Sequence record: PP925847.1
Direction: 5' to 3' (one strand)
Source of the DNA: Escherichia phage Zumzum
DNA length: 44,738 nucleotides
Part shown: positions 22,411-23,762 of the stretch, piece after piece
Layout of the letters: each line of letters begins with the position of its first letter
Position numbering within the stretch: position 1 is the stretch's first letter
Notes under the pieces: generated by a model
Told to the model about the DNA's origin: nothing
What the model saw: the letters and a program-made list of their open reading frames with translations, nothing else
Databases searched by the model: none
Position numbers and translations under genes: made by a program

Positions 22411-22623
22411 TTAAACGTCGCGCCCGTAGTATCGGGTTAACATGCTTTGTACTTCTTTTATCGCGCCTTCTGTGTAGCGTATTTGCGACAGTATTTCGAT
22501 CCTCTCGTCCATCGACATTCCGACTGCCGCTGCCGTTCGTTCAAATCGGCGCAAGCCTTCGAGTTGCTTGCGTAGTTCTTTCAGGCGGGTGGCCTGCGTG
22601 CTCATGAATACTTGTCTGATCAT
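22411..22623 (-). CDS. hypothetical small helical protein (70 aa)
   Basis: ORF whose start overlaps the upstream stop (ATGA at 22620-22623). Confidence 0.5.
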   Translation of the reverse strand: MIRQVFMSTQATRLKELRKQLEGLRRFERTAAAVGMSMDERIEILSQIRYTEGAIKEVQSMLTRYYGRDV

Positions 22624-23762
22624 TTCAACATTTCCGGGCTAATGGTTAAGCGCGCTACTTCGCCGTAGTTGGCGCTATAGGTGATGACGTTTGCGCTGCG
22701 ACCTGACATCCAACCGCCACGACTGGCGTAGGCGTCTTTCGCTGCGAGCGTCCTGTGCTGTTCAACAATCATGTTGCGGGATTCAACAATCTTCTGGTGG
22801 TGCAAGTGGCCTACATGCGCGTAGCTGTACTCGCTGGACCCGAACGCCTGTCTGAATTTAGAAATCATGACGGTTTCGATAGCATCGAAGCGCGCTTTGT
22901 GCCCGTGGTGGAAGAATAGCGTGGTCTTACCGTGCTGCACCATTTTGTAGACGTCCGGGGACGTATCCACATCGACGCGCGGCTCGTTCTCGTACAGCGT
23001 GTTGAACATCTCAGCAAGCCAAATCATGCCTGACTCGTCATGATTACCCTGGACGATTAGCAGTTTGACTTTGTGGTGTTTTTGCGGCGCTAGGTCTACC
23101 ACGTTGCGCACCATGCGGATCATGTAGCGGACTAACTTCTGGTATCGGGTGTCGGCGTCCAATACGTGACCGCTTGCCGGTGTGACGGCATCAAGGCTAT
23201 CAAAGTGCGCCATATCGCCGAGGATATTGATCACGGCAGTGCCTGCGTCCGGGGCGCGTGCGAAGGCTTCGACAAACCAGCGGTAGAACAGGTCTTCGGC
23301 GATCGCCATATCCCAGTCTTCGCCAGTCTCCTCGCCCCATGCCAACATGCCCAGGTGGAAGTCTGACACGGTGTACAGGTTGAGCAAGTCGAGCGCCTGG
23401 ATCGGTACTGGCGGAGCTTTTACTGGCGCTGCCGGTGTGATTTCGCTGTTCATACCCTCGACAACAGCGCGCATGGCTTCGAGTTGGCGCTCTTTGTCCT
23501 GCTCAGTGATGACCCACGACATGACCTCTTCGCCATTGCCTCGCACCAGGGCCGATACGCGCTTAACCCCAAACCCATCGGCAACGCGCTTGCGTATTAC
23601 GGCATCGTTGCCGTGTCCAATGCCTTTTTTCGACAGGCGGGCTTTCCGCATATAAACATTGCGTAGGGCAATCCCGTATTTCTTCGCAATATCTTTAACC
23701 GTAGTCCCTGCCTGAATTTCTGCGATCAATTGCTCATCGGTAATTTTAGTTTGCGGGTGCAT
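22620..23762 (-). CDS. N-terminal HTH fused to a calcineurin-like metallophosphoesterase (380 aa)
   Basis: HTH-like segment VKDIAKKYGIALRNVYMRKARLS; phosphoesterase motifs DFHLG, GDMAHFD, GNHD, HHGH, GHLHH in canonical order. Confidence 0.6.
   Translation of the reverse strand: MHPQTKITDEQLIAEIQAGTTVKDIAKKYGIALRNVYMRKARLSKKGIGHGNDAVIRKRVADGFGVKRVSALVRGNGEEVMSWVITEQDKERQLEAMRAVVEGMNSEITPAAPVKAPPVPIQALDLLNLYTVSDFHLGMLAWGEETGEDWDMAIAEDLFYRWFVEAFARAPDAGTAVINILGDMAHFDSLDAVTPASGHVLDADTRYQKLVRYMIRMVRNVVDLAPQKHHKVKLLIVQGNHDESGMIWLAEMFNTLYENEPRVDVDTSPDVYKMVQHGKTTLFFHHGHKARFDAIETVMISKFRQAFGSSEYSYAHVGHLHHQKIVESRNMIVEQHRTLAAKDAYASRGGWMSGRSANVITYSANYGEVARLTISPEMLK

Follow-up and report, generated by a model that had tools for sequence, protein, structure and literature searches.

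A helix-turn-helix metallophosphoesterase gene between lysis and terminase genes

The genome of Escherichia phage Zumzum (sequence record PP925847.1; the full 44,738-nucleotide stretch is referred to here as the window) contains a minus-strand open reading frame (ORF) at 22620-23762 that starts with ATG and encodes a 380-amino-acid (aa) protein, in which an N-terminal helix-turn-helix (HTH) domain is joined to a calcineurin-like metallophosphoesterase (MPE). An earlier note made from the sequence had singled out this gene, and its boundaries, product length and position between the lysis cassette and the terminase genes are exactly as described there (Table 1). We find that it is a further member of a catalogued phage family, PHROG 704, part of the DNA-metabolism core of numerous lineages of virulent phages. 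On balance, we lean toward the view that its product is a stand-alone, HTH-tethered two-metal (Mn2+/Mg2+-type) DNase of the Mre11/SbcD/PolD DP1 class, with host-DNA breakdown as the likely role.

The window represents a Dhillonvirus-like E. coli siphophage that shares ~93% nucleotide identity with phages mckay and Pandora71, and proteins annotated in Dhillonvirus genomes are 98% identical to the window MPE. The 70-aa ORF at the 3' end of the MPE gene is probably co-translated with it and could encode a lineage-specific partner or regulator. In Jerseyvirus T102, Jedunavirus and Ruegeria phage V13, too, a small ORF overlaps the end of the MPE gene. The small ORFs from these four lineages do not align with one another, which leaves no basis for claiming a conserved partner or immunity protein.

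Terminator-like hairpins and extended -10-like elements bracket the MPE gene and the 70-aa ORF, which suggests that the two genes may be expressed from a small transcription unit of their own, apart from the lysis and packaging genes. The motif shared by these predicted elements (TGnTAnAwT) occurs eight times in the whole window, and two of the occurrences directly follow the terminators that flank the unit. Another (10197-10205, minus strand) falls in a non-coding gap just upstream of a tape-measure-sized ORF (7518-10160). The two predicted terminator-then-promoter pairs would punctuate the long minus-strand gene array.

Table 1. Features of the MPE locus and possible partner genes elsewhere in the window
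Feature	Coordinates	Strand	Remarks
HTH protein	29705-30034	-	First in the minus-strand gene order that runs to the portal gene
Primase-helicase	27430-29694	-	Followed by small ORFs before the holins
Holin	24756-25046	-	First of two holins
Holin	24514-24759	-	Second of two holins
Endolysin	24036-24527	-	Between the holins and a ~55-aa gene
Terminator-like hairpin and T-run	23830-23851	-	End of lysis cassette, just upstream of MPE gene; RNA fold -15.9 kcal/mol
Extended -10-like element TGGTATATT	23798-23806	-	36 nt upstream of MPE start codon; predicted, read by eye
HTH-MPE gene, PHROG 704, 380 aa	22620-23762	-	Between lysis cassette and terminase genes
N-terminal tri-helical HTH, LuxR/GerE- or resolvase-like (residues 9-46)	23625-23738	-	
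Long beta-hairpin and helix module (residues 64-107), then Pro-rich linker	23442-23573	-	AlphaFold
Binuclear metallophosphoesterase core (residues 126-375), five motifs	22638-23387	-	
70-aa helical ORF, PHROG 20931	22411-22623	-	Start overlaps MPE stop by 4 nt (ATGA)
Terminator-like hairpin and T-run	22383-22403	-	After 70-aa ORF; RNA fold -13.0 kcal/mol
Extended -10-like element TGTTATAAT	22364-22372	-	In front of TerS, after the second terminator
TerS	21742-~22293	-	3' of 70-aa ORF
TerL	20357-21742	-	Followed by portal
HAD phosphatase, PHROG 415	41092-41562	+	Putative pathway partner
DUF6378 protein, PHROG 9871/474	41625-42179	+	Putative pathway partner

The active site is intact and the predicted fold is closest to nuclease-type MPEs

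The five motifs by which calcineurin-like MPEs are recognized (DxH, GD, GNH[DE], H and GHxH) are all found in the translation, where they read DFHLG (residues 134-138), GDMAHFD (182-188), GNHD (239-242), HHGH (285-288) and GHLHH (318-322), just as the earlier note had quoted them. An alignment of 65 homologous sequences (31-48% identity) shows D134, H136, G182, D183, T194, N240, H241, H286, G318 and H321 to be invariant. All of the metal-ligand positions D134, H136, D183, N240, H241, H286 and H321 are among these residues, and H319 is conserved in at least 90% of the sequences. The invariance of the ligands across the alignment indicates that the binuclear metal site is under strict selection. 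Motif I of the window protein takes the form DxHLG and motif II the form GDxxH, as is also the case in Mre11.

General domain models recover these features poorly. Matches to Pfam Metallophos (22.4 bits against a cutoff of 27) and Metallophos_2 (20.1 against 21.5) fall below the gathering thresholds, as do the HTH matches to GerE (14.3 bits against 23.5), HTH_7 (13.8 against 23.8) and HTH_28. This family is too divergent for models as general as those of Pfam and, as every Pfam match is sub-gathering, the MPE and HTH assignments rest on PHROG 704 membership, motifs and fold. A comparison of the family profile with the PDB gave GerE at an E-value of 0.016 together with sub-threshold matches to SbcD and other MPE nucleases, so that sequence similarity to Mre11 and SbcD is not significant. 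A search of the PDB with the single protein returned only repeat-protein matches, which we consider spurious.

The earlier note had called for structure prediction, and we ran AlphaFold2 on the 65-sequence alignment, obtaining a mean predicted local distance difference test (pLDDT) score of 92.9 and a predicted template modeling (pTM) score of 0.83. The N-terminal HTH that the earlier note had proposed appears in the model as three helices (residues 9-17, 22-29 and 33-46) that form a predicted HTH fold with a recognition helix and resemble NarL/LuxR response-regulator and sigma region 4 domains. It is followed by two strands (64-73 and 79-88) and a helix (90-107), modeled with a pLDDT of ~90. 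This hairpin module contains a conserved W83 and G77, and a structural search with it gave no distinct match. Beyond the Pro-rich linker, the model contains the beta-alpha-beta-alpha-beta sandwich of the MPE superfamily, and the protein ends directly after this predicted core.

Structural comparison of the modeled core places nuclease-type MPEs at the top. The highest-scoring matches were the PolD DP1 proofreading exonuclease (15.8, with 215 residues aligned), Mre11 (15.1) and SbcD (15.0), followed by LpxH (14.0), further Mre11/SbcD chains (12.5-13.6), MJ0936 (13.4), Rv0805 (12.2), GpdQ (12.1), 5'-nucleotidases (about 10) and PP5 (about 9). As judged from the model, the nuclease clade is thus the closest fold to the MPE core, by a moderate margin over other MPEs. 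The earlier note had listed three enzyme types, namely a lambda NinI-type Ser/Thr phosphatase, an Mre11/SbcD-like nuclease and a cyclic-nucleotide phosphodiesterase; of these, the fold favors the nuclease, the signatures of the NinI type are absent and the phosphodiesterase lacks specific support.

PHROG 704 is a widespread family with a conserved domain architecture

The window protein matches the PHROG 704 hidden Markov model with an E-value of 5e-160, its residues 5-380 aligning to positions 2-390 of the 390-position profile. Members from T1 (where the protein is known as p16), other Drexlerviridae, Dhillonvirus, Jerseyvirus and Webervirus share the HTH/hairpin/MPE architecture, from which the window protein differs in nothing. 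The PHROG name of the family, "DNA repair exonuclease", is an annotation only, and GenBank records variously label its members calcineurin-like phosphoesterase, metallophosphoesterase or wHTH domain protein. NCBIfam and PADLOC scans returned nothing meaningful.

We identified homologues by tblastn in 2,045 of 50,697 phage records. About 152 of these records, from Dhillonvirus, are at least 95% identical to the window gene product, while identities amount to 72-81% in Jersey-like Salmonella phages, 42-48% in T1 (44%), other Drexlerviridae and Webervirus, 37% in a Vibrio Ackermannviridae phage and 27% in N4-like roseophages. An exhaustive HMMER search of 1.84 billion cluster representatives (50% identity clusters) yielded 4,620 matches at E <= 1e-3, of which 1,115 reach E <= 1e-30. 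Lengths of 370-420 residues are seen in nearly all of them. Among the 150 best of these 4,620 representatives, a profile of the HTH segment was detected in 132 and the hairpin module in 134; most of the 18 without an HTH match are fragments or have an HTH-like N-terminus of another kind. In Ruegeria N4-like homologues, the MPE core is kept and the HTH is missing. The earlier note had regarded the fusion of an MPE to a DNA-binding domain as unusual, a view that does not hold, as its presence in 132 of 150 representatives makes the fusion the norm of the family.

A blastn search of the gene against 5,426 complete E. coli genomes, which would miss diverged homologues, found no match, and hence no close (DNA-level) copy resides in these E. 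coli prophages. Most of the matches that we viewed come from lytic phage groups (lifestyle was not tabulated), a distribution that would fit a product harmful to the host. Our survey of the literature on T1, Dhillonvirus, SECphi phages and escaper studies found no experimental work on any member of PHROG 704, a very large family that counts among the core genes of Drexlerviridae, Dhillonvirus, Jerseyvirus and Webervirus.

Related MPE genes reside near lysis and nucleotide-metabolism genes

We compared the surroundings of PHROG 704 genes in sequenced phages. In T1, the MPE gene lies after a Dam methylase gene and is followed by an HNH gene, an SH3 gene and the holin-endolysin genes. An "exonuclease-holin-endolysin-spanin" module is persistent in 508 of 522 Drexlerviridae genomes, and in Drexlerviridae without the SH3 gene the genes most commonly found directly after the exonuclease encode a polynucleotide kinase and a deoxynucleoside monophosphate (dNMP) kinase (PMC13164509). 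The MPE gene abuts the primase gene in Vibrio phage VAP7 and comes after dCMP deaminase and ThyX genes in Ruegeria phage V13. In Jerseyvirus T102 it sits among the tail genes as a small island on the opposite strand and, in Jedunavirus, it follows the primase-helicase gene and precedes TerS by ~1.2 kb, a distance occupied by three small genes. Klebsiella phage Roth74 has the MPE gene followed in turn by genes for a HAD phosphatase, a P-loop kinase and a holin. The SP6-like podovirus Era103 has an inserted MPE/HAD/dNMP kinase block, annotated as similar to T1 p16 and p62, that is T1-like and apparently horizontally acquired.

The HAD phosphatases beside MPE genes belong to PHROG 415, which contains the 5'-dNMP phosphatase Dmp of T5 as well as PNKP-type phosphatase domains, and the kinase beside MPE genes belongs to PHROG 139, a dNMP kinase family. 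A PHROG 415 orthologue lies immediately downstream of the MPE gene in Era103, Roth74 and three to four metagenomic lineages. In the window, the HAD gene and then the DUF6378 gene stand at the end of the plus-strand early operon. DUF6378 is the domain of Bxb1 gp49, encoded two genes from the Bxb1 MPE gp47, and it lies less than 400 bp from the MPE gene in all three metagenomic loci in which a match was detected. A PHROG 415 HAD phosphatase gene accompanied by a kinase or DUF6378 gene thus recurs beside PHROG 704 MPE genes, also in loci L010 (4675-5750) and L013 (4660-5726). We tested, and rejected, the idea that the MPE provides the 3'-phosphatase that a kinase-only polynucleotide kinase would lack: the 'PNK' of the window (the product of 41092-41562) is itself a HAD phosphatase domain.

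For a broader census, we dereplicated 158 IMG/VR loci at 70% MPE identity, which left 64 lineages, and clustered de novo all ORFs located up to 4 kb from the MPE gene; this procedure replaced a tblastn search with the window phage genes, which was too insensitive for most neighbors. The most frequent neighbor was a lysozyme-type endolysin (12 of the 64 lineages). DUF3310 was found in 8 lineages, the dATP/dGTP-diphosphohydrolase N-terminal domain (dGTP_diPhyd_N), portal and capsid in 6 each, two holin families in 5 each, dNMP kinase, NinG and SSB in 4 each, and Dmp-like HAD phosphatase and Endonuclease VII in 3 each. A relative of the window TerL was detected in two of the 64 loci and in neither case within 3 kb of the MPE gene (tblastn, limited sensitivity).

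The earlier note had found the placement beside the terminase genes unusual. Proximity to the terminase is lineage-specific, being a property of Dhillonvirus and, loosely, of Jedunavirus, and has no demonstrated meaning. The MPE gene lies away from the terminase in T1 and other Drexlerviridae, Jerseyvirus, Ackermannviridae, N4-like roseophages and Era103.

Comparison with characterized MPEs

The modeled MPE core is structurally closest to PolD DP1, Mre11 and SbcD among the cellular systems, with differences in the surrounding domains. The C-terminal capping domain of Mre11/SbcD, T4 gp47 and T5 D13 is absent, and the window protein has the N-terminal HTH and hairpin module instead. We found no Rad50/SbcC/gp46-type SMC ATPase in the window (ORF list, PHROG and Pfam scans) or next to the homologues. 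PolD DP1, an Mre11-like 3'-5' exonuclease, has an OB-fold domain and a DP2 partner, neither of which is seen for the window protein. The window phage encodes a family-A polymerase, and no polymerase is annotated in the 11-kb region of T1 that we examined; T1 uses the host polymerase.

Two phage MPEs provide the most informative parallels. T5 A1, a predicted metallophosphatase, structurally recalls both the nucleases that repair double-strand breaks and the proofreading subunits of polymerases. No other pre-early gene is both necessary and sufficient for the degradation of host DNA; A1 acts in conjunction with A2, which binds DNA, and with the dNMP phosphatase Dmp, and nuclease activity has yet to be demonstrated with the purified protein (bioRxiv 10.64898/2026.04.02.716235). 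Like A1, the window protein is a stand-alone phage MPE with Mre11/proofreading-like features in a phage that also encodes a Dmp-family HAD protein. A1 differs in belonging to PHROG 1745, in its length of 556 aa and in its pre-early expression, and its similarity to the window family is not significant (BLASTP E 0.19; hhalign probability 19% over 19 columns; A1 matches PHROG 1745 only). The DNA-binding function that T5 assigns to the separate protein A2 is fused to the MPE in the window protein. Similarity between the window HTH and either T5 A2 or Bxb1 gp45 (annotated 'sigma-K') is not significant, and this 'Rosetta-stone' argument is therefore only an analogy.

The second parallel is the Bxb1 gp47 family. 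Its member A10ZJ24 gp48 is an early, toxic protein with phosphodiesterase activity whose motif mutants are dead; it degrades linear, circular and genomic DNA in vitro and destroys host genomic DNA in vivo (PMC12287305). As with the window protein, the model of the gp47-type MPE matches Mre11 and DP1 best, and the gene likewise lies near DNA-binding genes and a DUF6378 gene (gp49). The gp47-type proteins differ in their length (~255 aa), lack of HTH and hairpin module, assignment to PHROG 221 and occurrence in temperate actinophages. The Bxb1 gp47/A10ZJ24 gp48 MPE also acts as an integrase directionality factor and is required for phage DNA replication, the directionality role having no counterpart here. 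An hhalign comparison with a six-sequence gp47-family profile gave a probability of 79% and an E-value of 1.6e-5 over 153 columns spanning motifs II-V, and by this sequence measure gp47 appears to be a remote superfamily relative of PHROG 704, not a member of the same family. The best reading of these comparisons is that the window MPE may be a functional analogue of T5 A1 and of the gp47/gp48 MPEs that belongs to neither family. Linkage of an MPE to lysis genes recurs in actinophages, echoing the PHROG 704 neighborhoods: the gp47-type MPE gene lies beside a holin gene in Streptomyces phage Elmer (L173, 2980-4043) and beside DNA-binding ('sigma-K'-annotated) and DUF6378 genes in further actinophage loci (L172 and L174-L175).

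A probable role in DNA breakdown

These observations lead us to favor a DNase of phage DNA metabolism. According to this reading, the LuxR/resolvase-like HTH, possibly helped by the beta-hairpin module, would hold the enzyme on duplex DNA while the C-terminal MPE core hydrolyzes phosphodiester bonds independently of a Rad50/SbcC-type ATPase. The DNA broken down would most likely be that of the host, and the products would feed phage-encoded nucleotide handling, here by the Dmp-like HAD phosphatase and the DUF6378 protein and, in relatives, also by dNMP kinase and dNTP-diphosphohydrolase-like proteins. For T1, degradation of the host chromosome has been reported (references cited in PMC11447400). 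A possible second role would be the trimming of DNA ends in phage replication or recombination. The domain architecture, the intact active site, the fold class, the wide distribution as a core gene and the gene neighborhoods are what the data show. DNA as the substrate, host DNA as the target and the link to nucleotide salvage are all three points that we infer.

Several considerations weigh against this assignment. The case that PHROG 704 enzymes act on DNA is drawn from fold rank, the HTH and gene context, and the lead of nuclease-type MPEs over the other MPEs in the fold comparison is only modest. As the family is not that of T5 A1 and is only remotely related to gp47, function can be transferred from these proteins only by analogy. 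Host shutoff by a nuclease would call for early expression, and the window gene comes after the lysis cassette, with its own terminator- and promoter-like signals. The commonest neighbor of the MPE gene overall, endolysin, finds no explanation in nucleotide salvage. The Mre11 capping domain and Rad50 partner are missing, and the sparing of phage DNA is unaccounted for, the two methyltransferases of the window phage having no demonstrated link to the MPE gene.

A more ambitious version, which we put forward as a tentative and rather unlikely proposal, is that PHROG 704 enzymes are the nucleases by which T1-like, Dhillonvirus, Jersey-like and related virulent phages degrade the host chromosome. 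The family members would then be HTH-guided, Rad50-independent Mre11-like DNases from which phage DNA is spared, for example by methyltransferases or timing, and their products would enter a mobile MPE/Dmp-like phosphatase/dNMP-kinase/dNTP-diphosphohydrolase module. Were this so, loss of the gene should leave host DNA intact, raise generalized transduction, as seen with the classical high-transduction mutants of T1, and change how defenses that sense DNA-breakdown products such as m6dAMP are triggered. The proposal would name the enzyme behind host-chromosome breakdown for many therapeutic and model coliphages, explain why the MPE gene travels with nucleotide-handling genes and bear on generalized transduction risk as well as on defense systems able to sense the products of DNA degradation. 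Taken alone, the window gene is unremarkable. For T5 A1 and the mycobacteriophage protein gp48, a connection with host-DNA destruction was drawn as recently as 2025-2026.

Alternative functions

An end-processing or repair enzyme for DNA or RNA, which would clean blocked ends together with a PNKP-like HAD phosphatase, a P-loop kinase and a ligase, is the alternative that we take most seriously, though we think it unlikely. Breaks made by host nucleases or replication would then be mended, and the host chromosome would not be degraded. Consistent with this idea, HAD proteins beside MPE genes match Pfam HAD_PNKP (E 5e-17 and 3e-18) and are followed by a P-loop kinase gene, an arrangement resembling a split T4 Pnkp, and Mre11, SbcD and the bacterial MPE PdeM (to which our matches are weak) are repair nucleases. 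However, these neighbors fit nucleotide metabolism equally well, given that PHROG 415 contains the mononucleotide phosphatase Dmp and that PHROG 139 is annotated as dNMP kinase, and the proteins encoded by the dGTP_diPhyd_N, DUF3310, ThyX and dCMP deaminase neighbors act on nucleotides, not on polymer ends. The Era103 block directly precedes an ATP-dependent DNA ligase gene, and the window phage encodes a PHROG 'DNA ligase' (39954-40418), a PD-(D/E)XK exonuclease and a gp2.5-like annealing protein, which also speak for repair; against this, the Era103 ligase gene belongs to the SP6 backbone, outside the inserted block, and the window 'ligase' lacks Pfam support. We regard as quite improbable a transcription regulator whose HTH binds phage or host promoters (as a late switch or in autorepression) and whose MPE serves as a sensor or auxiliary enzyme. 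The likeness of the HTH to response-regulator and sigma domains, the naming of PHROG 704 proteins as transcriptional regulators in several GenBank records and the position of the gene beside promoter-like elements, at the boundary between early/lysis and late structural operons, speak for regulation. Yet the family-wide invariance of the catalytic residues indicates that enzyme activity is what selection acts on, the Ruegeria N4-like homologues keep the core entirely without the HTH, and the position of the gene relative to late genes is not conserved. Nor is there a repeated operator: scans of 22300-25500 detected, terminators aside, only chance-level repeats and no candidate HTH operator, and a lone imperfect palindrome in the promoter spacer (CCNCNGTACNGNGG) occurs once in the window against 1.27 occurrences expected, no better than chance.

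The remaining three possibilities are the weakest. A packaging or maturation nuclease that assists the terminase, for example in pac cleavage or concatemer debranching, is suggested by the adjoining TerS and TerL genes, the nearby TerS of Jedunavirus and the occasional Endonuclease VII and NinG neighbors. We consider it very doubtful, as T1, Jerseyvirus, VAP7, roseophages, Era103 and the majority of metagenomic loci have the gene elsewhere, the MPE unit is set apart from TerS by a terminator-like hairpin and a separate promoter-like element, and TerL already has an RNaseH-like nuclease domain (Pfam) of its own. The earlier note had raised the possibility of a phosphodiesterase that destroys cyclic-nucleotide defense signals, which would be the cyclic (oligo)nucleotides of CBASS, Pycsar, Thoeris or type III CRISPR. 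The intact active site would permit such an activity, but we found no specific support for it and disfavor the reading as highly improbable: nuclease-type MPEs rank higher structurally, an obligatory DNA-binding domain has no role in small-molecule hydrolysis, the neighbors are DNA- and nucleotide-metabolism and lysis genes, and the PADLOC scan shows nothing relevant. The gene is moreover a persistent core gene, as its retention across Drexlerviridae (PMC13164509) and near-identity among Dhillonvirus records illustrate, and not a variable accessory. Enzymes of other folds act against such signals, Acb1 being a 2H phosphoesterase and Apyc1 an MBL-fold protein, which also counts against this role for the MPE. 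A Ser/Thr protein phosphatase of the lambda NinI type, with phosphoproteins of host or phage as substrates, would have the shared superfamily and the phage precedent of lambda PP in its favor. The PPP signatures are GDxVDRG and GNHE, in place of which the window protein has GDMAHFD and GNHD, and we give this option hardly any credence.

Additional observations in the window

A few gene models in the window merit comment. A 132-aa ORF (23858-24256, minus strand) overlaps the endolysin gene. PHROG 11068 matches only its last 53 residues, so the real gene probably encodes ~55 aa (~23858-24025); it closes the lysis cassette and may encode a spanin-like or accessory lysis protein. The mechanically called TerS ORF (21742-22392, minus strand) begins at a TTG within the upstream terminator. 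PHROG 3064 aligns to it from residue 37 onward and the mckay orthologue has 183 aa; the true start is probably an ATG near 22293 (MAEIKV...).

The 109-aa product of 29705-30034 is annotated in relatives as 'DNA recombination nuclease inhibitor gamma'. Pfam detects only HTH matches in it (HTH_23, HTH_28 and Sigma70_r4_2, residues 65-106), the matching PHROG 9366 is labelled 'transposase', and the Gam label looks doubtful.

On the plus strand, two DNA methyltransferase genes (PHROG 757 at 38857-39552 and Dam at 40405-40890) flank an HNH gene and the 154-aa ORF annotated as DNA ligase that is mentioned above. As candidates for marking phage DNA as self, these methylases would be relevant if the MPE attacks unmodified DNA.

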